DNA of 64,000 nt. It comes from an uncultured Candidatus Saccharibacteria bacterium. GTDB lineage: Bacteria; Patescibacteriota; Minisyncoccia; Phycocordibacterales; JACOZG01. Positions 11,596 to 58,371 of the stretch are shown piece after piece. Within the stretch, counting starts at the first letter, position 1. Each line of letters starts with the position of its first letter. Both the position numbers and the translations under genes were made by a program. The notes beneath the pieces were generated by a model. It was not told where the DNA came from and ran no database searches. It was given only the letters and a program-made list of their open reading frames with translations. The DNA is taken from contig OZ246403.1 in assembly GCA_965230925.1 (NCBI GenBank), positions 646,541 to 710,540 of the forward strand, given 5' to 3'.

Positions 11596-11655
11596 CCTAA
11601 TTTCCCCAATCCGTTAGCCTGAGTGACGGATTTCGTTATTTTGGGAGAGTTTGGC

Positions 11656-12747
11656 ATGAACTTTGACTTAAACGAATTGGCCGAAGCCTTTTGTAAGGCG
11701 ATGGCCAACGGTTGGTGGGGAGACCATGAAGAAGGTGAAGTTGTGCCCGGCGCTCCTAATTGTCGGTTCACATCATTCAAATTCAAAGGTTTCCGGGTGG
11801 TTGATTGTTGGCGGGTAACGAGAGGTCGGAGAAGTCCGGGTCGAGTTGCCATTTTGTTTGGAGGTAAAATTGTCTGGCAAATGGATTACTGGGAAGCATA
11901 CCCAGACGATCCAGTGGTCATGGATGCCGTGAAGAGAGGGGTGAGAAGCCTCTGTTCAAAGGGGATTTTCTCAGCTAGAGGGCCGAAGGTTCTTGCCTTT
12001 GGGGATGCGAGATACAAGGGCAAGCACCAGAGGTCTAGTCACGTTCTGGTGTACCAAAATTTGTACCGCGGTTCAATCAGGAGATTTTGCGGGGCAGAAG
12101 AAATCAGAAACGGCGACAGTTTAGTCGGTACGACCCAATATCGTGGTGGGCTTACAGAAGTGGGCCTGCCACTACCCATTGGACTAATCGGTCCTATTGG
12201 TGCCGGCAAGGAAGCCTTCTGGAAAATTCTCAGAGAGATTCTTTCTCCCCTCACTACCATTGATCGGTTTAGCACTTCGAATCTACTGGGTGGGGTCTTA
12301 GACATTCTTGGGATCCCGCGCGAGAGGTCCGATTTGCAGCGGGTGGCTCTCGCTTTGGATCGTCATTACTGCAAGGGCGTTGTGAGTCGGGCCGTAGCCA
12401 AGAACATGCTGGATAGCGGAAAAAAGGTGGTTGTCTTTGACTCCATTCGTTGGCCGACCGATATGAAGGCCGTTCGTGATAGAAGTGTGTTTCCGCAGAG
12501 TTTGGTTGTTCGTCTCAGAGCTGACCAAAGAACTCGTTGGGAGCGCGTACAAACCAGAAAGGAAAAACGCGGAGAAAACGGAATTTCTTTTGCGGCGTTT
12601 CAGCGGTCGGAAAGGGTTGGAACGGAAACGTCGATAGCAAGGTTGGCTCGACAGGCCGATGTTGTTATCGACAACGACGGTACTTTCGATGATCTACGAT
12701 CCCGCGTTGAGCAATTCGTTAAAGATCATATCGAACCCAAACTCTAA
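11656..12747 (+). CDS. Two-domain protein: unknown N-terminal domain fused to dephospho-CoA kinase-like P-loop domain (degenerate Walker A GAGKE)
   Basis: C-terminal IGLIGPIGAGKEAF...ARLARQADVVIDNDGTFDDLRSRVEQFV resembles CoaE, except K is followed by E instead of S/T. AGA/AGG/AGT-rich codon usage unlike the neighbours. Start assigned to ATG 11656 behind GGGAGAG (the track begins at GTG 11623). Confidence 0.55.
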   Translation: MNFDLNELAEAFCKAMANGWWGDHEEGEVVPGAPNCRFTSFKFKGFRVVDCWRVTRGRRSPGRVAILFGGKIVWQMDYWEAYPDDPVVMDAVKRGVRSLCSKGIFSARGPKVLAFGDARYKGKHQRSSHVLVYQNLYRGSIRRFCGAEEIRNGDSLVGTTQYRGGLTEVGLPLPIGLIGPIGAGKEAFWKILREILSPLTTIDRFSTSNLLGGVLDILGIPRERSDLQRVALALDRHYCKGVVSRAVAKNMLDSGKKVVVFDSIRWPTDMKAVRDRSVFPQSLVVRLRADQRTRWERVQTRKEKRGENGISFAAFQRSERVGTETSIARLARQADVVIDNDGTFDDLRSRVEQFVKDHIEPKL

Positions 12748-27560: not shown

Positions 27561-29366
27561 ATGGAAATTAGGAATATCGCCATTATTGCTCACGTGGACC
27601 ACGGCAAGACGACCTTGACCGACTTTTTGCTGCGCCAAACGGGCGCGACTGGCGAGGGTGTTTCTATGGACTCCAATGCGCTTGAGCAAGAGCGCGGTAT
27701 CACCATTTATGCCAAGAACGCTTCGGTAAATTATAAGGGGACGAAAATTAATATTGTCGACACGCCCGGTCACGCCGACTTCGGCTCGGAGGTGGAACGC
27801 GTGTTGCGCTCAATTGATTCCGTTTTGCTCGTTGTCGACGCTCAAGAAGGGCCGATGCCACAGACGCGCTTCGTCCTCAAGAAGTCGCTCGAGCTTGGTC
27901 TCAAGCCGATTGTGGTGATTAATAAAATTGATAAACCGGCGGCTGACCCTGCTCGCTGCGAGGAGCAGGTGCTCGAACTTTTCCTCGAGCTCGGGGCGAG
28001 CGATGAGCAGAGTAATTTTCCAGTTGTGTATGCTATTGGTCGTGAGGGTGTGGCCAAGCGCAAGCTCACCGATGATCCGCCAGCTGGCGGAAAAGGTCTT
28101 ACACCGCTTTTGGATGTGATTCTTGAGCATGTGAAGCCAGCGGCAGTTTCTACGCCAGATCAACCACTCCGTTTCCAAGCTTTCAATCTCGGTTATGACA
28201 ACTTCCTTGGTCGCTTGGCCATTGGTCGCATTTATGAAGGCGAGGTTAAGGCGGCGCAAAACGTGTTTGTGAAGAAACCTGATGGCACCGTTCGTTCGGG
28301 TAAACTCACCAAAATTTTTACCTTCCAAGGTTTGAAGAAAGTGGATGCTGAAACAGCGACGAGTGGCGATATTGTGATGATCGCTGGTCTCCCGGATATC
28401 GACATTGGCGAGACGGTGACTACAAGTGAGGCTGCGGAACCCTTGCCTGCTATCGCCGTGGACGAGCCCACAATTACGCTTAATTTCCTCGTTAATAATT
28501 CGCCCTTTGCTGGTCGCGAAGGGAAGTTTGTGACCTCGCGTCAGTTGCGCGAGCGACTCGAGAAGGAGCTTGAGATTAATGTGGGCTTGCGAATCGAGTT
28601 TGATTCGACCGAGAGCTTCAAGGTTTCTGGTCGCGGCGAGTTGCACATCGCCATTTTGCTCGAGAATATGCGCCGCGAAGGTTATGAAATGCAAGTGTCC
28701 CAACCGCAAGTAATTATTCATGAAGTGGATGGCGCGAAGCATGAGCCGTTCGAAGAAGCGATTATTGACTGCCCCAATGAATATCAAGGTGTGGTGATTG
28801 AGCGCCTCGGCAATCGCGCTTTCACTTTGCAAAACATGCGGCAAGAAGGTCACGGCACGGCGGTGCGCCTCACCTTCGAAGGGCCAACGCGCGGTCTTCT
28901 CGGCTATCGCAATCAGTTTGTGGTGGATACGAAAGGCGAAGGGATTCTCTCTTCGCGCTTCATCGCCTTCCGACCTTACGCTGGAGAAATTAAGAAGCGC
29001 GCGGTCGGCTCGATGATCTCAATGGCCACGGGGAAAGCCTTGGGTTACGCACTCTGGAACTTGCAAGACCGCGGTCAGCTCTACATTGGTCCAAATACGG
29101 AAGTGTATGAAGGCATGGTGCTTGGCAATACCTCGAAGGGTGAAGAAATGATGGTTAACCCGACCAAGGGTAAGCAACTCACCAATGTGCGTTCCTCTGG
29201 TAATGATGAAGCGATTGATCTCGTGCCGCCTTACCTTCTCACCATCGAGCGTGGTCTCGAAGTCATGGCCGAAGATGAATATCTCGAAGTTACTCCCAGC
29301 TCAACTCGTTTGCGCAAACAAAAACTAACCGAAACTGATCGATCAAGAGAGAGACGGAAGGCTTAA
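27561..29366 (+). CDS. typA: Translational GTPase TypA/BipA
   Basis: G1 AHVDHGKTTL, G3 DTPGHADF, G4 NKID; EF-G-like domains; length about 600 aa. Confidence 0.9.
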   Translation: MEIRNIAIIAHVDHGKTTLTDFLLRQTGATGEGVSMDSNALEQERGITIYAKNASVNYKGTKINIVDTPGHADFGSEVERVLRSIDSVLLVVDAQEGPMPQTRFVLKKSLELGLKPIVVINKIDKPAADPARCEEQVLELFLELGASDEQSNFPVVYAIGREGVAKRKLTDDPPAGGKGLTPLLDVILEHVKPAAVSTPDQPLRFQAFNLGYDNFLGRLAIGRIYEGEVKAAQNVFVKKPDGTVRSGKLTKIFTFQGLKKVDAETATSGDIVMIAGLPDIDIGETVTTSEAAEPLPAIAVDEPTITLNFLVNNSPFAGREGKFVTSRQLRERLEKELEINVGLRIEFDSTESFKVSGRGELHIAILLENMRREGYEMQVSQPQVIIHEVDGAKHEPFEEAIIDCPNEYQGVVIERLGNRAFTLQNMRQEGHGTAVRLTFEGPTRGLLGYRNQFVVDTKGEGILSSRFIAFRPYAGEIKKRAVGSMISMATGKALGYALWNLQDRGQLYIGPNTEVYEGMVLGNTSKGEEMMVNPTKGKQLTNVRSSGNDEAIDLVPPYLLTIERGLEVMAEDEYLEVTPSSTRLRKQKLTETDRSRERRKA

Positions 29367-29397: not shown

Positions 29398-29859
29398 ATG
29401 ACAAAAGCACAAAAGGGTTGGTTAGTTTTAACAAGAATTTCTCTTGGTTGGCTCTTCTTTTATGCTGGCATCACCAAGGTGCTTAATCCAGAGTGGAGCG
29501 CGGCTGGTTACTTAACTGGGGCGAAGACGTTTTCCGGCTTCTTTGCTTGGCTTGCGAGCCCGAGCATTTTACCAATTATTAATTTTATAAACGAGTGGGG
29601 TTTAACCTTACTTGGGTTATCTTTAATTTTTGGTTTCCTTGTTCGCTGGTCTTCCATTCTTGGAGCGGTTCTTATGCTTCTATATTATTTGCCCACCCTC
29701 GACTTTCCGTATCCCAACCCTCACTCCTACTTGGTGGATGAGCACATTATCTACGCGCTTGTTTTAATTTCTTTCTCCGCTCTTAATGTGGGTAGAATTT
29801 TTGGTCTCGATGGACGACGGATTCGGCGCCGGGTGGCCAGCACTCCAGTTGCGGAGTAA
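29398..29859 (+). CDS. DoxX family membrane protein
   Basis: Four TM helices, pattern ISLGWLFFYAGITKV... Confidence 0.65.
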   Translation: MTKAQKGWLVLTRISLGWLFFYAGITKVLNPEWSAAGYLTGAKTFSGFFAWLASPSILPIINFINEWGLTLLGLSLIFGFLVRWSSILGAVLMLLYYLPTLDFPYPNPHSYLVDEHIIYALVLISFSALNVGRIFGLDGRRIRRRVASTPVAE

Positions 29860-29935
29860 CTATTTTTGTGCTATTGTTTTCGTCGGACAAATCGTAACTT
29901 GAACTAAGGCTTTTTAACCAGAAGGGAGGTGTTCG

Positions 29936-30388
29936 TTGGTTGATGCACAAGAGTTTAGTTGTTTCATCGTGAAGCCACCGATGAGCAACCTCGATGAAAT
30001 TCTAGAAATGATTCGGGGTAGTGGCCTAGAAATCACTTATTGTAACCAGTGTGTTTTTCTAACCGAGGAAAACATACTCAATCTCTACCCTGATCTAAGA
30101 TCGGTTTCCAAGCAACCCTTGTGGTGCATTGTTAGAGATCATCTGCGCAGCTCAACGTGTTGCGCTGGGATTGTGGAAGGTGACGATGCGATTGAGCGGT
30201 TGCTAGATATTTCCGGGCGACATCTAAACCCTGGGCTCTGCCTTGGTGGAACTATTCGGAAAGAATATGGGGCACAAGAGCCGATCAGGTCTCCTGGTGG
30301 GATCGTATATTATCCTAATGCGATTCACCGCTCGGCTACACTAGAAGAGGCGTTAGCAAACCACGAACTCATTTTCAGTTTCCCTTAA
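29936..30388 (+). CDS. Divergent nucleoside-diphosphate-kinase-like protein (TTG start)
   Basis: FIVKPP (NDK IKPD), GTIRKEYG (GTIRADF), NAIHRSATLEEALANHELIF (NVIHGSDSVESAEREIALWF): fold and catalytic His conserved. SD GAAGGGAGGTG 6 nt before TTG. Codon usage rich in CTA/ATA/AGA/AGG, unlike neighbouring genes. Confidence 0.5.
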   Translation: MVDAQEFSCFIVKPPMSNLDEILEMIRGSGLEITYCNQCVFLTEENILNLYPDLRSVSKQPLWCIVRDHLRSSTCCAGIVEGDDAIERLLDISGRHLNPGLCLGGTIRKEYGAQEPIRSPGGIVYYPNAIHRSATLEEALANHELIFSFP

Positions 30389-30409
30389 TCCTAACCACAG
30401 TGGTTATTT

Positions 30410-30450
30410 AACACCCGCGTCGTGCGTTGCGACTCGGGTGTTTTCATTTT
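30410..30450 (+). terminator. Rho-independent terminator
   Basis: ACACCCG-17 nt-CGGGTGT then TTTTCATTTT. Confidence 0.7.
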
Positions 30451-30524
30451 GAGTGTTTTTCCTTTTGTGATAAATTGGAACAAGCGTTTTTTTGTTCCAA
30501 TGTTTTTTGCCAAGGAGGGCGACG

Positions 30525-30692
30525 ATGAACGACAATAAGAAAAAAACGGTCGTTTTCCTACGACCCAACCCTTCTCCGCCTAAAACATGCCGGCGTTGTG
30601 GTCAACCATTAGACCGCAAAGCCAGCGGTACTGGTATTTGTCCCAACAGCCAATGTGGGGCGAAGTATTTAGCAAAGGCCATTCCTCAGTGA
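30525..30692 (+). CDS. Small zinc-ribbon protein (55 aa)
   Basis: SD CCAAGGAGGG 6 nt before the ATG. CRRC...(16)...CPNSQC four-Cys ribbon. The leader contains an extended -10-like TGTGATAAAT and hairpin TTGGAACAA-GCGTTTTTTT-GTTCCAA. Confidence 0.45.
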   Translation: MNDNKKKTVVFLRPNPSPPKTCRRCGQPLDRKASGTGICPNSQCGAKYLAKAIPQ

Positions 30693-30724
30693 GGGGGCCT
30701 TTGTTCATTCTTAGGTGGTTTGGT

Positions 30725-31747
30725 ATGATTGCCGGCATGAAAACTGCTTTTTATACGATTGCGGATTGGGAGCGAGAATATTTGGAGGGTAAACTGGCGG
30801 GCGTGGGAGTTGAAGCAGAATATATTTCTACACCGCTGAAGAAAGAAACACTTGCTGGTTCAAGTGACGCTGAAATTATTTCTGTTTTTGTGGACTCGGT
30901 GGTTGATAAAGCGGTACTCGATAATTTTCCGAATCTCAAGTTTATCGCCGCGCGCTCGACTGGCTTTGACCACATCGACCTCGCGACAGCTAAGGCGCGC
31001 AATATTCCGTTGAGTTATGTGCCGAGTTATGGCGAGAACACAGTGGCTGAGCAGGCCTTTGCGCTCTTACTCGCCGTCTCGCGGAAAATTTATCAAGCTT
31101 TTGATCAGATTAAAGAAACCGGGAGCTTTAGCCAGGCTAATTTGCAAGGCTTCGATTTGCGCGGGAAAACGATTGGCGTCGTCGGCACTGGTCGCATTGG
31201 TCGCCATGCCATCCAGATGGCGAAAGGTTTCGGTATGAAGGTGGTGGCGTATGATCCGTTCCCGAACGAAGCGATGGCCAAAGAACTCGACTTTACTTAT
31301 TTACCTTTGCCCGAACTTCTCGCCGCGAGTGATGTGGTGACTTTGCATGTGCCATATATGAAGGAGACGCATCATCTCATTAATGCCGAAACAATAAAAA
31401 ACATGAAGCCAGGCGCGGTTCTTATCAACACGGCGCGCGGTCCGGTGGTAGAAACGGCGGCGCTTGTCTCAGCACTTAAGAATGGCAAACTCGGCGGCGC
31501 GGGACTTGATGTGCTCGAGGAAGAAGGGGTGATTAAAGATGAGTTTGGCTTCATGCTCCACGGCAAGGCGAGCGAACATGATCTCAAGACGGTGCTCGCG
31601 AACCACATCCTCATTGATCTCCCGAACGTGGTGATCACACCGCACAATGCCTTCAATACCAAGGAGGCGATTCAGCGTATCCACGACACCACGATTGAGA
31701 ATATCAAAGCCTTCCTTGCTGGTAATTCCACCAACTTGGTGAAGTAA
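30725..31747 (+). CDS. D-isomer-specific 2-hydroxyacid dehydrogenase (D-lactate/phosphoglycerate dehydrogenase family)
   Basis: NAD-binding GKTIGVVGTGRIGRHA, catalytic-region LINTARG...HNAF. Start taken at the ATG behind AGGTGG rather than the long track ORF starting at 30587. Confidence 0.8.
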   Translation: MIAGMKTAFYTIADWEREYLEGKLAGVGVEAEYISTPLKKETLAGSSDAEIISVFVDSVVDKAVLDNFPNLKFIAARSTGFDHIDLATAKARNIPLSYVPSYGENTVAEQAFALLLAVSRKIYQAFDQIKETGSFSQANLQGFDLRGKTIGVVGTGRIGRHAIQMAKGFGMKVVAYDPFPNEAMAKELDFTYLPLPELLAASDVVTLHVPYMKETHHLINAETIKNMKPGAVLINTARGPVVETAALVSALKNGKLGGAGLDVLEEEGVIKDEFGFMLHGKASEHDLKTVLANHILIDLPNVVITPHNAFNTKEAIQRIHDTTIENIKAFLAGNSTNLVK

Positions 31748-32282: not shown

Positions 32283-33272
32283 TCATAGTGATTCTCGGAT
32301 GATCTGATACCTTCCGGGAACCGCCGTTTGTGCTAGTGGTTTGGGGTCTCGAGCTCGGGCGTTCTGCCATAGGGTATATACCAGGTCAGACATTTGTCGT
32401 TCGAGGAGTCTGGCTTGCGCCAACTTGAGAAAGGTGGTTGTGAACGGTGTCTCAAGACAGGTTAGGTACTCCCAAACCAGCAATTCCAAATCGTCCTTAT
32501 CTACTTGCCCATGCTCCCCGAGGGAGCTGGCGAAGCGGACAAGGGTGAAGGTTTGGTCCCGGCGCCAACTTACTTTGTCGAGATCAATAATGATTACCCT
32601 GCCGTTATCCCAGAAGAGGTTGCCCGCGTGGGCGCCGTCGAGGTGGAAAGAATAGGGAAGTGTCTTCATTGTCCTTTTGCCGCCTCTAAGTTTCAGCGCG
32701 ACACGTGGAATCAGGGCGACGATTTTTGCGATCCACTCCAAGTTGTCTGGCCTAGGGTCTTGCCACGACGCCTCCCAGATTCTTTTTCCCCAACGAAGGA
32801 AATAACGATCAAAGCCTCGCTTGGTGTACTTTCGCAACAGGGGCAGGTTTGTTGGCTTAATTCCCGCCGCCTGGATTCTCGCAATCGCTTGAGCCGCCCC
32901 TACCAGTTGTCGCCCATCGAGCTTGGCGAATTTGCTCAATGGTTGACCGGATACATATTCTTCCACCATGAACGGGTAGGGGAAATCATCAGCAAAATAA
33001 AGCAACTCCGGCACCACCTCGGTCTCTTGGAGAGCCGTGGCCACCGCATACTCCTCTTCAATTCCGATGAAGGCACCCTTGTGATGCTTCCTGTCCGGAT
33101 GAATCACTCGGATGATGAGGGGTTTCATTCCTCCTGACTGGTTTGTTTCGAAAATCAAATGCTGGCTACCTTCATGGGCGAGCCGGATTTGAGTTTCTTT
33201 GTCTAATCCCGCTGGTTTGTGTATATCGAGATAGTCGCTCAGATCCCTAATTAGTTGTTCAATGTTCACCAT
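32283..33272 (-). CDS. Aminoglycoside phosphotransferase (APH)/eukaryotic-like kinase family protein
   Basis: Catalytic loop HLDGAHAGNLFWDNGRVIIIDLD (HxDxxxxN...D). Start placed at MVNIEQ with SD AAAGGAAAAGAG. Confidence 0.65.
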   Translation of the reverse strand: MVNIEQLIRDLSDYLDIHKPAGLDKETQIRLAHEGSQHLIFETNQSGGMKPLIIRVIHPDRKHHKGAFIGIEEEYAVATALQETEVVPELLYFADDFPYPFMVEEYVSGQPLSKFAKLDGRQLVGAAQAIARIQAAGIKPTNLPLLRKYTKRGFDRYFLRWGKRIWEASWQDPRPDNLEWIAKIVALIPRVALKLRGGKRTMKTLPYSFHLDGAHAGNLFWDNGRVIIIDLDKVSWRRDQTFTLVRFASSLGEHGQVDKDDLELLVWEYLTCLETPFTTTFLKLAQARLLERQMSDLVYTLWQNARARDPKPLAQTAVPGRYQIIRESL

Positions 33273-33379
33273 AACTCTTTTCCTTTTCAGTAAAGCCCGT
33301 CCTCTCGTCCAGTAACCCAATCTGGTGAATTTGATACCATAAAATTAATATCTTTGCAAGCTGTGGTAGTCTAGGGCCA

Positions 33380-35211: not shown

Positions 35212-35979
35212 TTATTTAAGCCACATAATGACAAAGAGAAGGGCGATGATGATTCGGTAGAGGCCGAAGGGGAGGAGGGTTCGGGTTTGAATAAATTTGA
35301 GAAATGATTTGACGGCGAGGAGAGCGGTGAGGAAGGCGACGAGGAAACCGAGAGCGAAAAGGCGATAATCGTTTGAAGAAAAGGTGAGATTGCTTTTAAC
35401 TAAATCGAAAACGGTGGCCGCGAGAATGGTGGGCACGGCAAGGAGAAAGGAAAATTCTACCGCTGCGCGCCGTGAGAGGCCGAGTACGCGGCCGCCAATA
35501 ATCGCGGCGGCCGCGCGAGACACTCCCGGAATTACCGCGAGGGCCTGAACAACACCAATTACCAGCGCTTGCTTTGGTGAAACCTCGTTAATGAGAGAAC
35601 TTTCTTCTCGACCGCGTTGCCAGAATTCAATCGCAATAATTACGAGTCCGCCGAGGGCGAGTGATAAGATGATGGTGTGTGCACCCTCGAGAAAGATATC
35701 TTTAATCGTGGGATAAATAGAAGCACCGACAATCGCGGTAGGGATGAAGCCGCAGATTATTGGCCACCACAAGCGGCGATTGATTAGGGTTTTGAAATAT
35801 ACTCCCACTACGGCCAAAATGGCGCCGAGTTGAATGAAGATCTGGAAGCTTTTCATCAGCGCCGTTGGTGAGAGGCCAAGTAATTTGCTCGTTACGATGA
35901 GATGGCCGGTGGAAGAAACAGGTAAGAATTCCGTGATTCCCTCAACGACACCGAGAACGACAGCGTGCCACTCATTCAT
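35212..35979 (-). CDS. uppP: Undecaprenyl-diphosphate phosphatase
   Basis: GITEFLPVSSTGHL signature; 8 TM. Confidence 0.9.
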   Translation of the reverse strand: MNEWHAVVLGVVEGITEFLPVSSTGHLIVTSKLLGLSPTALMKSFQIFIQLGAILAVVGVYFKTLINRRLWWPIICGFIPTAIVGASIYPTIKDIFLEGAHTIILSLALGGLVIIAIEFWQRGREESSLINEVSPKQALVIGVVQALAVIPGVSRAAAAIIGGRVLGLSRRAAVEFSFLLAVPTILAATVFDLVKSNLTFSSNDYRLFALGFLVAFLTALLAVKSFLKFIQTRTLLPFGLYRIIIALLFVIMWLK

Positions 35980-36406
35980 GAATTGGAGTTGGAAGACATT
36001 TAATTTTTAGGCCGATGAGGAAGAGAAGAGTTGAAATGAGAGCGGAGCCAAGACAATATAAACACCAAGCTTTAATGAGGAAAGCTTGGGCGAAGATAAA
36101 CCAGAGCGAGGCGAGGAGTCCAATAACAGAAAGTTTGGCCGCGCGCTGGAGCCACACATCATTACTTCCCGCGAGACTTGCGGTGGTGAAGAGGAGAATG
36201 GCGAGATAATAGACAATACCCAAGAGGGCTACTGGTATCGGACCAATGGTTGCGTAGATACTCGAGGTTACTTGTTCGCAACTCCCGATCGCGCAAGGGA
36301 GAATTCCCCCGGTGTAATGGGTGATCGTAAGGTAGGTAGCATCGAGAAAACCGAGGAAACTAAGGAGTGCGTAAGATAGCTTCAATTTGAGATGAGAAAT
36401 CATCAT
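35972..36406 (-). CDS. Vitamin K epoxide reductase (VKOR) family protein
   Basis: Four TM with a Cys pair in the loop (CAIGSC) and CxxC (CLYC) at the start of the last helix. Confidence 0.7.
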   Translation of the reverse strand: MMISHLKLKLSYALLSFLGFLDATYLTITHYTGGILPCAIGSCEQVTSSIYATIGPIPVALLGIVYYLAILLFTTASLAGSNDVWLQRAAKLSVIGLLASLWFIFAQAFLIKAWCLYCLGSALISTLLFLIGLKIKCLPTPIHE

Positions 36407-37004
36407 AATTGCGGGGCATAATTTTCTTACCGTTTAAGAAGAAGGTTGGCGTAGCGCTTACTCCGGCATTGTCGGCTTGTTGGGCGCTCGTTACCACTTT
36501 GGTTTCGAGCTCGCTTCTCGCGCTGTCGGCGGCAAACTTAGTGAGGTCTAAGCCGAGCGTGGTGGCGTAAGTGGTGAATATTGGTTGCGCGTCCGCGAGA
36601 CTTTCCCATTCAGTCTGATTTTCAAAGAGAAGATCGTGCATTTCCCAGAATTTACCCTGGATCCCAGAAGCTTCGGCCGCAATGGCAGCGGCAACGGCGT
36701 TCTCGTGTTGCGGGAGCGGGAAGTGACGATAGGCGAAGGTAATTTCATTGCCATAGCGCTCCATAACTTGTTTGACGATTGGGAAATAAGAAGCGCAGGC
36801 CGGACACTGGAAGTCACTATATTCTATGAGAGATACTTTAGAGTTAGCGGCACCCTTAGCCCAGTCATTTGCAGAAATAGCCGAAACCGAGCCCATATCC
36901 TCGAGCCGCGACTTGGTTCCCGAGTAGATCAGAGCCCCTAAACCAATGAGAATTAAAAGAATAACAATAGCCCACACCATTCCACCCAACTTTTTTGTTT
37001 CCAT
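36360..37004 (-). CDS. DsbA-family thioredoxin-fold oxidoreductase (signal-anchored)
   Basis: FQCPAC active site. Start at METKKLGG; the upstream extension in the track was removed. Confidence 0.75.
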   Translation of the reverse strand: METKKLGGMVWAIVILLILIGLGALIYSGTKSRLEDMGSVSAISANDWAKGAANSKVSLIEYSDFQCPACASYFPIVKQVMERYGNEITFAYRHFPLPQHENAVAAAIAAEASGIQGKFWEMHDLLFENQTEWESLADAQPIFTTYATTLGLDLTKFAADSARSELETKVVTSAQQADNAGVSATPTFFLNGKKIMPRNYDDFSSQIEAILRTP

Positions 37005-37146
37005 GTTGCCAGTGTAGCAAATATCTAGCACCTCAAACTAGACTTGACTAAAATTGCAATTCGTAGTAGCTTCTTGATCAGAGGTATTTTGTTGTTTCTT
37101 TGTTGTCAGCCCTTTAATCGGGGTCTAGATATGGGAGGTAAGAGAA

Positions 37147-37869
37147 ATGGATTTTGCGCTACAAAACTTTCTGCTTTTGTTCCAGGCTCTTGTGAAAATA
37201 AGAGACGAGGCGATTGTGGAGCATCGGGGTTTGTGTCTGAAGATTTCCGAACGCTACAGCCGTCTTTTTCGAAGGAATCGGAAAGAGTGGAAAGAAGATT
37301 TTTTCCAGGAGGCTTGGCTGGGCATTGTTCAGGGTGTTGATTCCTTGTCCTTCGACTCGGAGCGTGGAAAACTGTCTAGTTTTCTTGGTGGTTGTTCAAG
37401 AAACAATATCAGGAATTTTATAGACCTCAATCCGTTTAGGGGCGACTATCAATTGAGTGCCCTGCTTCAGCCAGAGTCTGTGGATGGGTCGGAACAAAAC
37501 ATGGGGTTTATCGAAAGAGAAAGTCCAGACCCGTTTGGGCGCTGCGCCTGGGGAGAGGAACATCAACGAATGCTGGCGTCGGTTGCTACCGTTGTTGATC
37601 TCGTGAAAGGTTGTCACAAGTCCCTTAGAGACAAGCTGATATTTACCTTGCACTACGGTTTGACTGGGTCTTGGGAAATCTGTCCGACTGCTGAGGTTGC
37701 CAGGATGGTCGGTTTGAAAAATCGGCAGCGAGCTGACCAGATTTGCAACGAGGTTTGGGACCAAATTTGTCCTGAACTTGGTTTGGCAAATCGCACTGAT
37801 GCCGATGTGTGGCTGCAACAGGAGGTTGGGAGAATTAGAGCTGTCGAGGACTATCTTGCGGCGGCTTAA
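37147..37869 (+). CDS. Sigma-70 family (ECF-like) RNA polymerase sigma factor
   Basis: Region 2 DFFQEAWLGIVQGVDSLSFDSERGKLSSFL and region 4 HTH HYGL...ICPTAEVARMVGLKNRQRADQ. SD GGGAGG 10 nt upstream. Confidence 0.55.
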   Translation: MDFALQNFLLLFQALVKIRDEAIVEHRGLCLKISERYSRLFRRNRKEWKEDFFQEAWLGIVQGVDSLSFDSERGKLSSFLGGCSRNNIRNFIDLNPFRGDYQLSALLQPESVDGSEQNMGFIERESPDPFGRCAWGEEHQRMLASVATVVDLVKGCHKSLRDKLIFTLHYGLTGSWEICPTAEVARMVGLKNRQRADQICNEVWDQICPELGLANRTDADVWLQQEVGRIRAVEDYLAAA

Positions 37870-48056: not shown

Positions 48057-48923
48057 TTATTTCATTCCCCAATAACCAAAAACGTAGCCGGTGGTGTAGT
48101 CAGAATTGGGAACAAAGTCTTCGGTGTTGAGAACCTGGAGATTAGCTGTGGCGAGTGCTTGTTTAGTCTTCATGGCGGTGAGAAAAGTGAGGAGCGCGGC
48201 ATTTGAATCAGCTTCAACCAAGTTAATTGATTCGCTGTCGAAGTTGTTGAGAATTGCTCCGGAGAGCTGGTCGAGCGGTGCCGCTTGATCTGGCGTGAGA
48301 TAGTGAGAGAAGTCCACGCTCGCAATGAGCACCGTCTCTTTATCGAGCCTTGACGCTAAGAATTCGCCGAGTTGTTTGGCTTCGGCTTGACTCGTGTTAG
48401 AACGGAGAATAATTGGTGTAAGACGAGCTTCTGGGAACAGACGACTAATGAGAAGAGTTTGGGTACCAATTGAGTGTTCGTTGTCGAACGGTTCTTCTTC
48501 GATGGACGCGATTTTTTCCTCACTTAACTTCTCGGCTAGGCCTGGGATTGGCTTCAGCTCGCCATAAGTACTCAAGAAGCTGGCGGCAGAAACGGTGATC
48601 GGTGTTTGCCCTGCATTAGTATGATCAGGTCCGAGAATAATAAAATTCTTAACCGTTTGCTTGGCTTTGAGCCCACGATAGAAGTTCAGGAGCTCGGGAA
48701 TAGTAGTGGGAATATGGTGAGGAACAATGCCGCCAGAGATATGTGAGAGAGAAATTGGTTCAGGTGATTCCGGATTTTCGAGAGCAGTCTCAATTAGCGG
48801 TGTATATTCATTCCAGAGTGATTGGTGGTAAGTGAAAATCTTTTCCTCGCTGGCACTACCAGTGAAGTAGGCCAGGGCAAGAGCCAGTAGTACGAGAACA
48901 CTAGCGAATAGTAACCGTCGCAT
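48057..48923 (-). CDS. Memo1/AmmeMemoRadiSam-system-protein-B family protein with N-terminal signal anchor
   Basis: ISGGIVPHH, ILGPDH and SVDFSHYL blocks (Memo GPSH/DFSHY). N-terminal MRRLLFASVLVLLALALAYF. Overlaps the 3' end of the upstream giant gene by 23 nt. Confidence 0.6.
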   Translation of the reverse strand: MRRLLFASVLVLLALALAYFTGSASEEKIFTYHQSLWNEYTPLIETALENPESPEPISLSHISGGIVPHHIPTTIPELLNFYRGLKAKQTVKNFIILGPDHTNAGQTPITVSAASFLSTYGELKPIPGLAEKLSEEKIASIEEEPFDNEHSIGTQTLLISRLFPEARLTPIILRSNTSQAEAKQLGEFLASRLDKETVLIASVDFSHYLTPDQAAPLDQLSGAILNNFDSESINLVEADSNAALLTFLTAMKTKQALATANLQVLNTEDFVPNSDYTTGYVFGYWGMK

Positions 48924-51900
48924 TCTGAGAAATTGTCATGCTGGCTAGACTCTTGAGTGACTGGAGAATGGCTGGCTCAGCCTGATAGCGACCCTTCGAC
49001 ACCACGCGCGCCGTATAAGAAATTGAGCGGGGAGGATTCTTGCTAACGACGAAGGCTACTTCTTGATTTTCAATTTTTATGGGGTAATGCATCAGAATAT
49101 CTTTACCGCCGAAGGAGCGGCTGGCTTCCGGACTCACGGCGCGTAAACCGCTCGGTAAGTAATCCGTGAGTTTATAGGCGCCATCAAGAGATTGGGGGCC
49201 AAAACTTGGTGTGAGGTATACGGTCACAAGATCACCATCTTTGAACTCGGTGGTGGGAACACCGTTTACCGAGTATGAGCGCGTAAGTGTGAGATTAGAA
49301 TCTTTAACAACATCTTTTGGTGACGACGGCATTTCATATTGAGTTGTGAGACCGAGATTACCTTTTACCTCATTTAGTTTGAATGATTTTAATTCTTCTG
49401 CCGAGAGATTGAGAACCAGAGTTTCATTATTGCTTAGGGTTTTGTTCTCAGTTTTATTTCCTAGCTGATAACTGAACTTTGTTTCGGCGGCCTCGGTGTG
49501 AGCGAGAGCGCGGCTGAGGTAAATGAGTTCAGGGAAACTGTTGAGAATTTCTCGAGGATTATTGGTTTTCCCATAGAGGGCAAGGGCTGCCGCTTCCTTC
49601 TCTTCCAAACCAGCCGCTAGTGCCGCGGCGAGGGCGGTGGCCGTAATTGTTTCATCTGGTGGCAGATTTCTTACATATGCATATGAAGCTTGTTGGGTAA
49701 TCTCGGGCAGAATGGCGGTGCGATAATATTGCCGAGCATCTTCTTTAGCGCCAAGTGTTTCAAGGGCGAGGCCGACAAAGATTTTTTCGGTGATGGCGAG
49801 GGAAGTATCTTTGGCAAGAGTTTGGAGTTTGGGAAGAATTGGTTCACGGAAAGCACTGAGGCCAAAGAGGGCGCGGACACTGCGCGATCGATCTGCTTGT
49901 TTGTTTACGAGATTGTCGTGAAGATACTTTCGCAAGGCAACTCGGTTTATTGTCTGATCGTTGAAGAGATGAGCGCCGAGGCTCGAGATTTCAAGTTCAT
50001 CACCGGAGTACGGTAAGAGTTGTAAACCGCCGGAGTAAGATTGATATCGTTCACTTGGGAAAAGTTCATAAGGTTGCTCCTCAGCAAAATATTTTTTAAG
50101 CAATTCTTTCGCCGCGAATGTGGCACCCACTTGATCCAATCTTGGTCCGCGGTCGAGGGTGAGATGCTTGAGGTCTCGATACAGAGTGCCACGACCCGCT
50201 TCGCTGAAGGTGAGCGTGGTGTAGCCACTTGTCTTTGGTTCAATGGTCAAGCCAGCTGTTCCTTGGTAGAAATCAGCCGTGTTTTTATTGAAGTAACTTT
50301 CCACCACGTGAAGTGGGCTCACTAATCCATCAGTTGAGTTCCCGTTCTGAGCTCTCGCCGTAATTTTATGATCGCCGACGGTCAATTTTCCAAGGGCGAG
50401 ATCGATAATTGCACCGCCAATTTGTTCAATTTTCTTGAAGGGCAGAGTGGGGCTTTCCGCGCTGTACTTAGTGCTGTCCGAGATAACACCAGAGCCGAAG
50501 GTGCGCAGGCGCAGAGTGAGTTCGTCGCCAGCGAGATAAGTGTTATTAAGTGTGGTGTCGACGAAGAAGGGCAATGAGACGGGGATGAAAGAGACTGTTT
50601 TTCCGGCAAACAAGTCTTGAGTTACCGCCTGACTGGTGAGCCGCCACGAGGTAATGTTTTCCGGTAATTTGAAGTTTACTTTTGCGTGACCAGATCCATT
50701 GGTTACTATTGAGCGGAAAATAGCCGTTTCTTGAATATCGGAGCGCGGTGAAAGGCCTTCGCCGCCACCCATTTCTGCCCCGCCGCCACCACGGCCATCA
50801 TCGCGCGGTGGTCGGTGAGAAGAACGGAGCGTAAGCGATTGGAAGACGTCTCGGTAGAGAGATTGGGTAATGTCTTCTTCATTTGGTCGGAGAGAAAAGA
50901 CGGCCTCATCAATGGCCGAGAGATTTACTTCCGCTTTAGTGGGAGCTCCGGCGGCGTCGGTAACGCGGATATCAAGTTCTATGTTTTGACCGGGCATGAA
51001 GGAAGCTTGATTTGGGGTTACCGCAACGTTGAGTCGCCGTGTTTCGGCATTGAAGGAGAGGTTCTCGCGATAACTATTGTGGAAGCGGCCGCCGCTAAAC
51101 CACCCAGCCCACAGGTTAGCGTTCGGAATAAACTTGTTTTGGAAGGTTACCTGATAGGCGGGAGAATCCTGGATTTTGTAGGTGAGTTCATTGTTGTTTG
51201 CCACCGTGATGAAGATAAACTTATTTGATCCTGGTAGAAGGGTTTCGTCATTAGAATTGCGGATATTCAGGTTTACTAATTCGCCCAGTTGGTAGCCATT
51301 CTTTTTTTCTTCCAGTGGCCTAATTTGATAAGAGTAATCCTCATTTCCTTCCAGTCTAGGACTCTCGCCGTAGATATAACGGTCAGTTTTGAGCTGGCGA
51401 CCAAATTCGTCGTTGGTAGTAAAGGTGAGACTGTAGGTTTTTTTCTCTTCTGGTGAAAGAGAAAACTGAGCAATGCCACTAGCGTTGGAGGTGACCGTGC
51501 GGGTCTCGAGGAATTTTTCTTCTTTCGAATATTTATAAATTGGTTCGGTGGTTTTACTAATCGGATTATAGCGCGTGCCTGTTTGGTTTTTATGCTGAAT
51601 TACTTCGGTTACAGTAACCACTGTTTCTAGGTTAGGGACAGGGGCACCGAGATACTTTGTAGTGTCCCAAGAAGGCGTGCCTGAAGTAATATTACCTAGA
51701 GTAATAATATTATTTTTCAGCTCGAAATTTGTTTGGCCGCCTACTTTCTTCTGAGTAATCGTTTGATGAATATGCGGTCCAAAAATGAATATCGTGGCGC
51801 TGGTATTAATTTCTCCAGCTTCCGCCTGGGTGGGCCGGACACTTAAGTTGAAATGATTTGGCCAGTAGCGTTCCTCACCAGTGTAGGCGGTTGGAATAGT

Positions 51901-53727
51901 AATTGTGCCTTCGCCGCGCCCATCCAGAGTAATAATCCCGTTCCGTTGCTTGTTAATGAGGTAGCCTGAGTAAGTAAGGCCGAGATTTGTGACCGGTGTG
52001 CCGTCGAAGAATTCCCCCTTCACTTTGAAGGTGGCAGTTTCTCCAGCGAAGATGGCTGGTTTTTCCGGGCTTAGGGTTAATTGATAGGCCGGCTTAATAT
52101 ACTCGCTTATCGAGAGACCTTCTTGGGCAATAATTTCTTCACCTCGGCGGAGAGTGAGATAGTAAAATCCGGGCGAGAGATTCTCATAGGCTATTTCCCC
52201 AGTCAGGGTGTGATAGTCAGAGAGTTTGAAATTTTTGGTGGCGTAGATGGTTTTATTTTTTTCATTATCTGACCAGTAAACATTGCTTAAAGTGGCGGTA
52301 ATTTCTTCACCCGTGGCACTGTCTGCTCGCGGCTTGGCAATAGCCCAGAAGCGAATGATGTCGCTTGGGAGATAAATTGTTTTGTTGAGAGAAATATAAT
52401 CCCACCAAGTGTCTTGCTCATTGAAATCGGGTCGGTAACCATAGTCATTTTCTACCGGAATAACCACACTACCGCCAGGAGCTTCAGCTAAGAAGAAGTT
52501 CTCATCTTTAAGAATCTCGGGAGGGGTGGTGAAGATGGCGACTCCATCGGCGCCGGTCCGGGCGACTTCTTTTCCTCTCACTCGAATTGGCACATTGGCC
52601 AAACTGTTTTCTGTAGCGGCATTTTTGAGCCAGATCAATGATTGACCATTTCCCACCGCGGCTAAACTGGCTACCGGGCTCACTTGGAACCAGGCCATGT
52701 CGGTGTTGTCATTGGCGGTCAGAGCTATGGCGTAATAACCGACAGCGAGGGAGTTTGGGAGACGGACGAAACTGTTGTAACCTTCATTTGTTTTAATAAT
52801 TGGTAAAGTGGCGGAAAATGTTTTTTGTGAGGCAATTGCGTCGAGATCAGTATAGCGATGGTAGAAAGCCCAGGGATCTTGTTTCTTCGCTTGCGAAAGA
52901 AGTTCTAGAAATTGATTGGCAGAGTCAAAACGGTAAACCGCGGCCACCGCTTCGCTTACATTGCTACTAACATTGAATTCAATTGGTGAATCTGGTTTAA
53001 ATTCAGCAAAGGAGGGGTAAAAGTGGATGTATGGACCGCGCGCGTTCCCGCCCGCCTGCGTGGTCTCAAACCGGATAATTTTTTCTTCCCCTAGTTTTTC
53101 GCTCGAGCCTTCGGTGCCGAGCTCCGGCTTAACGGTAATGGTGTAAATGGTTTGTGGCTTCAAAGTGAGTCTTGGGATAAAACGAACTTTATTTCCCGAA
53201 AAGTCGAAGTCACCATCTGTCTTTGGAGTAATTTCAATATGTTTTGCCGGATCGTTGATGTTTTCACGATTAAATTCAATTTCAATTCCGGTATTGAGGG
53301 GGACATTGTTGGCTTGATGGCGAGGGAGAGAGCTCGTGATCGCGAACGGTGCCTTCACTTGGTAAGCCCAAGAGTAATCACGGTTCGAGAGTTCGCCACC
53401 GGCGATAGCGAGAGTGTAAATTTCATTAGTGTTGAGAGGAACTGTAGGGATAATTTCAAAGGTATTTCCAGAATCAACCTTCTTAACCTCGAAATCAGTT
53501 TCTGGAACAATCTTCAAATTATCTTCAATTGTTCCTACACCGAGGGGGGCTGAGGAGGTGAGAATAAAGCGGCTTTCGGCGTTAATCCCATTCGCATCAG
53601 CCGTGCTCGCGGTGAGGGTGAAGTCCGAGACGACCACCGGCCCTCTGCCTTTCATCCGAGGCCAAAAAACTACCGCCGCGATAATTAAAATCACGACCGC
53701 ACCTACCAAATAAGCTTTTTGTTTCAT
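48901..53727 (-). CDS. Giant secreted multidomain protein, alpha-2-macroglobulin (A2M/YfaS)-like, thioester-less
   Basis: 1608 aa. Signal anchor, many beta-sandwich (MG/Ig-like) segments, and an alpha-helical toroid-like region (AITEKIFVGLALETLGAKEDARQYYRTA...ATALAAALAAGL) where TED would sit. No CxEQ motif found. Confidence 0.5.
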   Translation of the reverse strand: MKQKAYLVGAVVILIIAAVVFWPRMKGRGPVVVSDFTLTASTADANGINAESRFILTSSAPLGVGTIEDNLKIVPETDFEVKKVDSGNTFEIIPTVPLNTNEIYTLAIAGGELSNRDYSWAYQVKAPFAITSSLPRHQANNVPLNTGIEIEFNRENINDPAKHIEITPKTDGDFDFSGNKVRFIPRLTLKPQTIYTITVKPELGTEGSSEKLGEEKIIRFETTQAGGNARGPYIHFYPSFAEFKPDSPIEFNVSSNVSEAVAAVYRFDSANQFLELLSQAKKQDPWAFYHRYTDLDAIASQKTFSATLPIIKTNEGYNSFVRLPNSLAVGYYAIALTANDNTDMAWFQVSPVASLAAVGNGQSLIWLKNAATENSLANVPIRVRGKEVARTGADGVAIFTTPPEILKDENFFLAEAPGGSVVIPVENDYGYRPDFNEQDTWWDYISLNKTIYLPSDIIRFWAIAKPRADSATGEEITATLSNVYWSDNEKNKTIYATKNFKLSDYHTLTGEIAYENLSPGFYYLTLRRGEEIIAQEGLSISEYIKPAYQLTLSPEKPAIFAGETATFKVKGEFFDGTPVTNLGLTYSGYLINKQRNGIITLDGRGEGTITIPTAYTGEERYWPNHFNLSVRPTQAEAGEINTSATIFIFGPHIHQTITQKKVGGQTNFELKNNIITLGNITSGTPSWDTTKYLGAPVPNLETVVTVTEVIQHKNQTGTRYNPISKTTEPIYKYSKEEKFLETRTVTSNASGIAQFSLSPEEKKTYSLTFTTNDEFGRQLKTDRYIYGESPRLEGNEDYSYQIRPLEEKKNGYQLGELVNLNIRNSNDETLLPGSNKFIFITVANNNELTYKIQDSPAYQVTFQNKFIPNANLWAGWFSGGRFHNSYRENLSFNAETRRLNVAVTPNQASFMPGQNIELDIRVTDAAGAPTKAEVNLSAIDEAVFSLRPNEEDITQSLYRDVFQSLTLRSSHRPPRDDGRGGGGAEMGGGEGLSPRSDIQETAIFRSIVTNGSGHAKVNFKLPENITSWRLTSQAVTQDLFAGKTVSFIPVSLPFFVDTTLNNTYLAGDELTLRLRTFGSGVISDSTKYSAESPTLPFKKIEQIGGAIIDLALGKLTVGDHKITARAQNGNSTDGLVSPLHVVESYFNKNTADFYQGTAGLTIEPKTSGYTTLTFSEAGRGTLYRDLKHLTLDRGPRLDQVGATFAAKELLKKYFAEEQPYELFPSERYQSYSGGLQLLPYSGDELEISSLGAHLFNDQTINRVALRKYLHDNLVNKQADRSRSVRALFGLSAFREPILPKLQTLAKDTSLAITEKIFVGLALETLGAKEDARQYYRTAILPEITQQASYAYVRNLPPDETITATALAAALAAGLEEKEAAALALYGKTNNPREILNSFPELIYLSRALAHTEAAETKFSYQLGNKTENKTLSNNETLVLNLSAEELKSFKLNEVKGNLGLTTQYEMPSSPKDVVKDSNLTLTRSYSVNGVPTTEFKDGDLVTVYLTPSFGPQSLDGAYKLTDYLPSGLRAVSPEASRSFGGKDILMHYPIKIENQEVAFVVSKNPPRSISYTARVVSKGRYQAEPAILQSLKSLASMTISQNATVTIR

Positions 53728-56742: not shown

Positions 56743-58371
56743 TTAATTATTATTTTCTGTTGCAAACATCGGCCATACTTTCTCTGTCTCAATATACCAA
56801 TTGTGGATATTGGCAAAGCGTTCGCTTGGCACATTGAGTGTTGGCAATGACGCTCCTACCACCTTCTTTGGCAAGAGATAAAGAAAGTCGGGAGTGTAGA
56901 GAAAGATGGCTGGTTGTTCAGCCGTCACCAGATCCACAAACTTGGTATATAAAGCCAGGCGCTCGGTGCGGTCGATAGTGCCACGGGCTTCCTCGAGAAT
57001 TTTATCTGCTGTTGCATTGGTGTAGAGCGCAATATTTAAACCAGGGTCAAGTCTCTGAGAAGAATGCCAAAAAGCAAAAGGATCCGGTTCGCGGCCCACG
57101 ATTTCGCCAAAGAGTAAGGCTTCATATTCACGTGGGCGGATAACCTTTTCATTGAGATCTCCGGTCTCGAAGACCTTAATTTCTACCTGAGCACCAAGTT
57201 TTTCCCAATCAGCTTTCACGATTTCAGCCACTGCCTTGAGTTCTGGAATATCCGCGGTGGCGAGGGTAAAGGTTAGATCGGTTTGAGCCGGTAGTGTGGG
57301 GGTTGAAGTGCTGATTGACTTGGGAGCGAAGGCTTCTCCGGGAATGGGGGAAAAAAGTGGTTTGCCGAAGCCGGCGAGCACGTTGTCTACGAGGTATTTT
57401 CGATCAATAGCTCGACTCAAGGCTTGGCGAACCTCTTTCTTGGTAAATAAACTATTTTGATTGTGGTTGAAAAAGATTCCAAAAACGCGTGGCAAAGAGG
57501 AGCGTAGCAGGGTTGAATTATTTGATTCAAGCCCGGCAATAAAATTTGGATTTGCTGTTGAGAGGGACTCGGTTTCACCGCTCTCATATGATTCAATCAA
57601 CTTGTCTTCACTAGGATAGAAACGAATGGTGAGCCTCTTAATCTTTGGAGTACCGAGGGCAAAGCGAGTGAAAGCGGCGAGTTCGTAATACTCCTTAATT
57701 TTGTCGCCATCCTCTTTAATTTTTTTTACGACATATGGCCCGGATCCGATCGGTTCGATGTTAAGCGGACTGAAGGGGAAATTCTCGGCCGCCACTTCTG
57801 ACCAAAGATGCTTGGGAAGAATTCCAAGAGTTAAATTTTCTAAAAAGGCGGCATAGGGTTGCTTGAGGGTGAAAATAATGGTTTTTTCGTCCGGTGCAGA
57901 AACTTCTACTCCGTCCCAGTTGGGGAGGCGTGGACTTTTGATCACCGGATTTTTGATTTGAGTAATGGTGAAAGCGACGTCGTGCGCGGTGAGTGGCTTG
58001 CCGTCATGCCAGTGTAGGTTCTCTTTGAGAGTAATGGTGTAATTGAGATGATCCTCGCTGATAGTTAGGTTTTTTGCCAAATCTGGTTCCAATTCGCCCT
58101 TTGTTCCCAGGCGGAAAAGGCCAGAGTAAATAAGACTAGTAAGGTCACGGTCGGTATCAGAAATAGCGAGCACGGGGTTAATAAAGCGAGGGGAACCAAC
58201 AACTCCCTCAGTGAGACTGCCGCCAGTTTTTGGAATTTCTACTAAATACTGGGCGCTCCATTGCCAGCCAATACCGAGCAGGCTGAGACAGAAAACAACC
58301 ACCAAAAGAGAAAGTAGCGCTAATTGGCGGCCCGAAAAAGAGCCTAAAACCGAAGGAAGAGTTTTGTTCAC
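56743..58371 (-). CDS. ABC transporter substrate-binding protein, family 5 (peptide/nickel)
   Basis: Signal anchor plus an SBP_bac_5-like sequence of about 540 aa. Confidence 0.7.
   Translation of the reverse strand: MNKTLPSVLGSFSGRQLALLSLLVVVFCLSLLGIGWQWSAQYLVEIPKTGGSLTEGVVGSPRFINPVLAISDTDRDLTSLIYSGLFRLGTKGELEPDLAKNLTISEDHLNYTITLKENLHWHDGKPLTAHDVAFTITQIKNPVIKSPRLPNWDGVEVSAPDEKTIIFTLKQPYAAFLENLTLGILPKHLWSEVAAENFPFSPLNIEPIGSGPYVVKKIKEDGDKIKEYYELAAFTRFALGTPKIKRLTIRFYPSEDKLIESYESGETESLSTANPNFIAGLESNNSTLLRSSLPRVFGIFFNHNQNSLFTKKEVRQALSRAIDRKYLVDNVLAGFGKPLFSPIPGEAFAPKSISTSTPTLPAQTDLTFTLATADIPELKAVAEIVKADWEKLGAQVEIKVFETGDLNEKVIRPREYEALLFGEIVGREPDPFAFWHSSQRLDPGLNIALYTNATADKILEEARGTIDRTERLALYTKFVDLVTAEQPAIFLYTPDFLYLLPKKVVGASLPTLNVPSERFANIHNWYIETEKVWPMFATENNN

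Follow-up and report, generated by a model that had tools for sequence, protein, structure and literature searches.

Canonical bacterial nucleoside diphosphate kinases (NDKs; Ndk, EC 2.7.4.6; PF00334, NF001908) are the closest described relatives of the product of an NDK-like gene in a 64,000-nt stretch of contig OZ246403.1 (positions 646,541 to 710,540, forward strand), from an uncultured Candidatus Saccharibacteria bacterium. This whole stretch, about 9% of the 716-kb genome, is referred to below as the window. The window protein keeps the fold, size and catalytic His of canonical Ndk, together with its Lys, Tyr, Arg105 and Asn residues, but is only 19–26% identical to solved NDKs, has Leu in place of both Arg88 and Thr94 and HRSA in place of HGSD, and belongs to a subfamily with an invariant Cys after an NP motif and an insertion of about 10 residues before the strand that bears the catalytic His. 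Its best sequence match among solved structures is a group II/NME7-like ciliary NDK domain (PDB 8g2z chain 1M, E = 1.4e-5), and domains of that group are also divergent, with altered active-site residues of their own and a Cys in strand β3. The similarity is weak, however, and confined to window residues 7–112, and these domains are parts of multidomain eukaryotic axonemal proteins; a specific kinship beyond the shared superfamily is not indicated.

For gene context, the closest described systems are the pairs of prokaryotic viperins (pVips) and kinases. Like them, one clade of the subfamily pairs a nucleotide-kinase-type gene with the gene of a nucleotide-acting radical S-adenosylmethionine (SAM) enzyme in defence-island-like surroundings. 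This clade differs from the pVip pairs in its MoaA-like radical SAM partner and in the NDK fold of its kinase, and no PADLOC model matches the NDK-like protein; the window copy, moreover, has no radical SAM partner in its 64 kb. The literature search turned up no account of this subfamily; on NDK in Patescibacteria, it gave nothing but a comment about adenylate kinase (PMC4508563).

An NDK-fold protein translated from a TTG codon

The gene and its ribosome-binding site lie as follows.

29936..30388, + strand: NDK-like coding sequence, TTG start, 150 aa (open reading frame (ORF) list, Pfam NDK, family alignment, AlphaFold2 (AF2), Foldseek)
29924..29929, + strand: Shine-Dalgarno sequence GGGAGG, six bases 5' of the NDK-like TTG, read from the sequence

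A first-pass annotation, made from the letters of the stretch, had proposed a highly divergent, Cys-rich NDK of 150 aa with its catalytic His retained, starting at TTG behind a strong Shine-Dalgarno sequence. Each of these points was borne out. The protein matched Pfam NDK (PF00334) over residues 8–148 with 41.1 bits (gathering score 27), and the family alignment placed the catalytic His at position 131. An AF2 model built from 45 sequences had a predicted local distance difference test score (pLDDT) of 95.1 and a predicted template modelling score (pTM) of 0.88, and the best 50 Foldseek matches of this model in the PDB were NDKs throughout (TM 0.72–0.88, identity 19–26%). The divergence is evident from the score on the NCBIfam ndk equivalog NF001908, only 33 bits where the cut-off is 155, and the Cys richness from seven Cys residues, compared with a family median of three, which include those of the SSTCCAG and CNQC motifs.

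The public record of the gene (P0001, 135 aa) begins at an internal ATG at 29981 (29981–30388). This start was rejected, as it would remove strand β1 and the Lys13-Pro14 pair conserved in all full-length family members. We take the TTG at 29936 as the true start because the N-terminus that it adds (EFSCFIVKP) matches β1 and the conserved Lys-Pro of the relatives; the database protein is truncated.

Searched for homologues by word index, the single protein matched nothing but itself. Collections of phages and plasmids held nothing that matched it, and no PADLOC model matched either this protein or the 55-aa ORF described below.

A rare subfamily with its own sequence signature

Relatives were sought exhaustively with HMMER among 1.84 billion cluster representatives. 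At a threshold of E ≤ 1e-3, this gave a family of 232 representatives, nearly all of 130–170 aa, the closest being 43% identical to the window protein. Their shared signature, which is absent from canonical NDK, comprises IIKPEG, LYP, CExGIVEG, G-x3-[ND]P-x2-C-x2-GTIR-x2-[FY]G and YYxNAIHR[SP]K. A degenerate DNA pattern for G-x3-[ND]P-x2-C-x3-TIR-x2-[FY]G, scanned over 241 million metagenome records, retrieved 46 loci, 39 of them encoding family members, and seven further relatives gave 11 more loci.

The family profile gives members 137–170 bits and the window protein 139, a clean gap above the 67 bits that canonical NDKs reach at best. NCBIfam holds no model dedicated to the subfamily, and all 34 of the 34 members tested fell far under its cut-offs. 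Conservation was computed on 185 family sequences (the window copy, representatives from the exhaustive search and metagenome loci), and was highest for Arg108 (100%), Cys102 (99%), Gly94 (99%), His131 (96%), Tyr51 (95%) and Asn128 (93%), with Arg132 at 80%. The window protein holds the family-invariant L31, G94, P99, C102, R108 and N128 as well as Y125, H131 and R132, and indeed every position conserved at 90% or more.

The NDK-like gene is a real, if unusual, member of the NDK superfamily, from a rare and previously undescribed subfamily. The first-pass annotation had allowed that it might prove to be the lineage's ordinary ndk with typical codon usage. The rarity of the family (232 representative clusters; 39 genes in the pattern scan) argues against this, and the gene, which falls far short of the equivalog cut-off and has atypical codons (see below), is not an ordinary ndk.

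Predicted active site and private features

In alignments with canonical NDKs, K13, Y51, R108, N128, H131, S133 and E138 of the window protein align with K11/Y51/R104/N114/H117/S119 of the E. coli enzyme. The catalytic His131 corresponds to the canonical H117/H118, and K13, Y51, R108 and N128 are the retained counterparts of the nucleotide-binding residues Lys12, Tyr52, Arg105 and Asn115. The canonical HGSD motif reads HRSA in the window protein and HR[SP]K in the family, so that Gly119, beside the catalytic His, is replaced by Arg132. The insertion of about 10 residues before the strand that bears the catalytic His (115–124 in the window protein) is a family feature. Judged from these alignments, the phosphate-binding site is remodelled, and the substrate range or the regulation may therefore differ from those of canonical NDK.

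Other features are private to the window protein: Pro15, an inserted Cys36, an insertion at 55–58 (R55–S58), Cys76 (Glu in the family), Leu97 (mostly Thr in the family), and four extra Cys residues. Such departures from the family consensus at P15, C36, 55–58, C76 and L97, with the extra Cys residues and the loss of Thr94 and Glu76, would be expected of a horizontally acquired, poorly expressed gene that drifts as a decaying or silent passenger, and the top rare-codon fraction in the window and the want of any relative above 43% identity point the same way. Yet the reading frame is intact behind a good Shine-Dalgarno sequence and the fold is predicted very confidently (pLDDT 95.1). Because the well-conserved positions noted above are all kept and the profile score lies within the range of members, we regard the protein as an intact family member and decay as improbable.

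Genomic contexts of the family

A neighbour-joining tree of the family shows that gene context tracks phylogeny. In one clade, a MoaA-like radical SAM gene lies directly upstream of the NDK-like gene on the same strand (12 of the 39 metagenome loci). These radical SAM proteins score 92–97 bits on the moaA model (cut-off 284) and 45–68 bits on the viperin model, short of the cut-off in every case, and their genes are often preceded by a gene for a membrane protein with a receiver-like (REC) domain. Three-gene cassettes of REC membrane protein, MoaA-like radical SAM protein and NDK-like protein were seen at L097:2696-4562, L118:7547-9752, L107:3919-6180, L103:1060-3310, L127:3490-4922, L106:3289-5868 and L093:50-2105. 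They occur in diverse contigs outside the Patescibacteria, with G+C contents of 31–63%, and their neighbours include genes for Eco57I-type methylases, an ORC/CDC6-like ATPase, HNH, a type IV secretion system (T4SS) coupling protein, SIR2 and TIR (TIR-HAD). No PADLOC model matched the NDK-like or the REC component, and the cassette is a candidate for an uncharacterised defence or mobile-element system. The window protein falls outside the radical SAM clade, and the gene upstream of it encodes DoxX, not a radical SAM protein.

Further associations were found in other parts of the family. Six loci (L085, L088, L089, L124, L131 and L133) have a gene for a CYTH protein (class IV adenylate cyclase/triphosphatase-like, about 183 aa) adjacent to the NDK-like one, and two of these loci belong to the closest relatives of the window protein. 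A NUDIX hydrolase gene lies downstream in L135 and L136, which represent one relative of the window protein, and TsaD is encoded downstream in five loci. The NDK-like domain is fused to HD in P0013, P0057, P0089, P0117 and P0127, and to a TauD-type dioxygenase in P0050, while the operon at L115:251-3170 encodes a MoaA-like radical SAM protein, an HD protein, the NDK-like protein and a second radical SAM protein. The window protein itself groups in a loose clade with P0002, P0003, P0004, P0006, P0007 and P0129, the contexts of which are compact housekeeping ones (rplU-NDK-like-RecR-DnaB-CysS; DnaE; TopA; RuvB/PilB), two of them with CYTH and one with NUDIX.

The suggestion in the first-pass annotation that the enzyme might convert nucleotides gains from these repeated ties of the subfamily to MoaA-like radical SAM, CYTH, HD and NUDIX proteins. 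They keep open a specialised role on unusual nucleotides, in which the protein would be a nucleotide-modifying or signalling accessory enzyme that phosphorylates or dephosphorylates such nucleotides, providing partner enzymes with NTP substrate or acting on their products, and the window copy a solo one whose partner is elsewhere in the genome or lost. Besides the adjacent partner genes and the fusions, the correlation of context with phylogeny and the remodelled active site (HR[SP]K, the invariant Cys102, the loss of Arg88) are consistent with this role. On the other hand, tblastn and Pfam searches of the 64-kb window found no radical SAM, HD, CYTH or NUDIX partner (three radical SAM queries gave a best E of 0.07), several members of the window clade sit without partners amid housekeeping genes, and an ordinary NDP kinase would be equally expected beside nucleotide enzymes. 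For the window copy, we consider this role possible but less likely than not. A weak tblastn match to CYTH at 57202–57531 was rejected, the gene there encoding a solute-binding protein.

A bolder proposal is that the NPxxC/HR[SP]K proteins are not housekeeping NDP kinases but form a distinct class of His phosphotransferases for unusual nucleotides, acting in many bacteria with MoaA-like radical SAM and membrane REC proteins in new viperin-like anti-phage or nucleotide-signal cassettes and elsewhere with HD, CYTH or NUDIX proteins. The window copy would then be a solo derivative captured horizontally by an episymbiont, with Cys102 and the extra Cys residues perhaps serving redox or metal regulation. 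We offer this as speculation and consider it rather unlikely.

Transcription unit and codon usage

Downstream of the NDK-like gene lie two hairpins and a small ORF.

30410..30452, + strand: terminator-like hairpin, 13 pairs, G+C-rich, followed by UUUUCAUUUU (U tract); fold; ends the NDK-like transcription unit
30474..30509, + strand: second hairpin, 11 pairs, followed by GUUUUUUG (U tract); terminator scan and fold; directly 5' of the Shine-Dalgarno sequence of the small ORF
30525..30692, + strand: 55-aa ORF, ATG start, CxxC-x14-CxxxxC; Shine-Dalgarno sequence AAGGAGG at 30512–30518, six-base spacer

The stretch from 30380 to 30530 folds at −48.1 kcal/mol (z = −4.4 against shuffles), in agreement with the terminator and hairpin-bearing leader that the first-pass annotation had placed after the gene, and no Rfam family was found in this structured intergenic stretch. 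The second hairpin may act as another terminator in tandem with the first, or belong to a leader. The layout of the NDK-like gene is that of a monocistronic unit, flanked by terminator-like hairpins and equipped with a Shine-Dalgarno sequence and a TTG start of its own.

Codon usage was compared with a background of 57 proxy genes of the window. The first-pass annotation had remarked on the use of CTA, ATA, AGA and AGG, and the counts confirm it: these codons make up 11 of the 150 in the NDK-like gene, against 1.6% in the background (binomial P = 4e-5), the highest rare-codon fraction among the 57 genes, with CTA alone accounting for 7 of the 18 Leu codons. The synonymous-codon likelihood of the gene (z = −2.0) is the third lowest of the 57, DoxX1 and a 345-aa gene having −2.1 each. 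Its G+C content is not atypical. Rare codons are also frequent at 11623–12747 (+), encoding an AAA_18/DUF5680 protein (6.2%), and at 37147–37869 (+), encoding a sigma-70 region 2 protein (5.9%), so that the NDK-like gene is the extreme of a tail rather than a unique outlier. The atypical codons are consistent with separate acquisition. Together with the monocistronic organisation and the patchy distribution of the family, the CTA-rich codon usage suggests that the gene was probably taken up alone by horizontal transfer.

The 55-aa ORF

The first-pass annotation had described the ORF at 30525–30692 as a four-Cys zinc ribbon immediately upstream of a D-2-hydroxyacid dehydrogenase gene. The ORF, its Cys pattern and its position are as described, but all zinc-ribbon matches are below threshold: the best Pfam matches have E values of 0.004–0.05, below gathering scores, and the NCBIfam RpoP model gives 21.7 bits against a cut-off of 63. 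No homologue was found among 5.8 billion proteins, and none of the phage collections gave a match. A single-sequence AF2 model (pLDDT 64) was uninformative, and the ORF is annotated as a gene on just one of two identical contigs. It is nonetheless fairly likely to encode a real small protein.

As an alternative or an added role, the stretch may be a structured leader of the dehydrogenase gene. The RNA from 30520 to 30740 is strongly structured (z = −3.6), and an 8-bp pairing of AUGCCGGC (30587–30594) with GCCGGCAU (30729–30736) would cover the region in which that gene starts; the pairing may reflect translational coupling, a leader function or chance.

The further claim that a zinc-ribbon protein is the partner of the NDK-like enzyme is unsupported. 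The ORF is an orphan, and a small ORF with Cys pairs occurs within 600 nt at just 1–2 of 50 family loci, in each case with a sequence unrelated to it. In a Vogelbacteria genome, the dehydrogenase homologue lies directly after ppsA, with no small ORF upstream. Nothing ties the 55-aa ORF to the NDK-like gene, from which the two terminator-like hairpins divide it, and it is not a demonstrated partner.

Neighbouring genes

The + strand carries in order an M20 peptidase gene, BipA (27561–29366), DoxX1, the NDK-like gene, the 55-aa ORF, the dehydrogenase gene and DoxX2, followed by the 345-aa gene on the − strand. The window BipA is 64–79% identical to BipA of metagenome-assembled genomes labelled Patescibacteria, Adlerbacteria, Niyogibacteria, Vogelbacteria and others, and the genome is of a Patescibacteria (Paceibacteria/Parcubacteria-type) bacterium. 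Several public contigs, up to 715,934 bp long, carry the same DNA as the window. The genes around the NDK-like gene are as follows.

29398..29859, + strand: DoxX1, 153 aa; Pfam DoxX, 34 bits; 57% identical homologue in related locus L053
30725..31747, + strand: D-isomer-specific 2-hydroxyacid dehydrogenase (LDH), 340 aa; Pfam 2-Hacid_dh_C, 201 bits; gene call on L002
31796..32197, + strand: DoxX2, 133 aa; Pfam DoxX, 74 bits

The first-pass annotation had read the block from DoxX1 to DoxX2 as an inserted module bracketed by two DoxX paralogs. Both flanking proteins do match Pfam DoxX, but they are only remotely similar to each other (BLASTP E = 0.13) and are not close paralogs. No flanking repeats, integrase, tRNA or mobility genes were found around the block, where repeats of 14–23 nt are at chance level. 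Its G+C content (0.45–0.55) is that of the surroundings, and its codon usage is mixed, with z values of −2.08 for DoxX1, −1.25 for DoxX2 and +0.8, a typical value, for LDH. In 80 related genomes, within 8 kb on either side of BipA, the DoxX-NDK-like-Zn-ribbon-LDH-DoxX order was seen in none (0/80) and no neighbour was conserved. Since the DoxX proteins are remote, repeats and mobility genes are lacking and the neighbours are not conserved in the 80 genomes, a module bracketed by paralogs is unsupported.

A five-gene inserted module with the micro-protein as functional partner would draw on the adjacency of the genes, the Cys richness that the NDK-like protein shares with the small ORF, the strong Shine-Dalgarno sequence of the latter and the atypical codons of the NDK-like gene and DoxX1. 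Against this stand the hairpins that part the NDK-like gene from an orphan ORF not found beside other family members, the typical codons of LDH and the Vogelbacteria LDH homologue without a small ORF, besides the remoteness of the two DoxX proteins, the missing insertion signatures and the failure of the order to recur. This explanation is largely refuted and we hold it to be very improbable. On these results, we take DoxX, the small Cys ORF and the dehydrogenase gene to lie next to the NDK-like gene by chance.

Several other features of the window were observed in passing. The 345-aa ORF (32283–33320, −) has no Pfam or PDB sequence match, a codon z of −2.1 and 5.5% rare codons. Inspection by eye shows an HxD...N / IIDLD stretch with a tentative resemblance to kinase-like phosphotransferases. 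Genes at 35212–37031 (−) have a thiol/quinone-redox flavour (BacA, VKOR and DsbA/thioredoxin-like, by the annotation of the identical contig L001), to which the two distant DoxX genes may be added. A 1608-aa alpha-2-macroglobulin-like protein with A2M and bait-region domains is encoded at 48901–53727 (−); considering that the genome is about 0.7 Mb in size, the gene is large.

Discussion

We favour, with moderate confidence, the reading that the window gene encodes a solitary, probably horizontally acquired, His-dependent nucleotide phosphotransferase that serves nucleoside triphosphate (NTP) salvage. As in canonical NDK, His131 would accept the γ-phosphate of an NTP, and phospho-His131 would hand it on in a ping-pong reaction, the acceptor being a nucleoside diphosphate or some other related nucleotide. 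We know of no de novo nucleotide synthesis in Patescibacteria, and such an activity would balance the scavenged nucleotide pool of a biosynthetically poor cell. Canonical ndk, adk and pyk are all absent from the 64 kb of the window.

A number of observations weigh against this reading. Canonical Arg88 (E. coli R87), which mutagenesis of Dictyostelium and human NDK reportedly shows to be important for canonical activity, is Leu90 in the window protein and L, V or F in the family, although Arg132, beside the catalytic His, may replace it. Canonical Thr94 (E. coli T93) is Leu97, with Thr retained in 46% of the family. With its 232 clusters and 39 metagenome genes, the family is too rare to be the general ndk of Patescibacteria, and the company that other clades keep with radical SAM, HD, CYTH or NUDIX hints at a role narrower than bulk NTP synthesis. 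The rare codons, finally, may signal very low expression.

For the window locus, the outcome is mostly deflationary, leaving one odd gene instead of a module, and the main interest lies with the subfamily as a whole, previously undescribed, and with its radical SAM cassettes, which are found outside the window. Databases name the proteins of this subfamily simply 'NDK' or not at all, though they form a separate group with an invariant Cys of its own. Their links with radical SAM, HD, CYTH and NUDIX proteins, some in defence-island-like surroundings, are a testable lead to new nucleotide chemistry. An atypical NDK-fold enzyme of patchy distribution, its phosphate site remodelled, is a concrete candidate for part of the chemistry by which Patescibacteria interconvert scavenged nucleotides.

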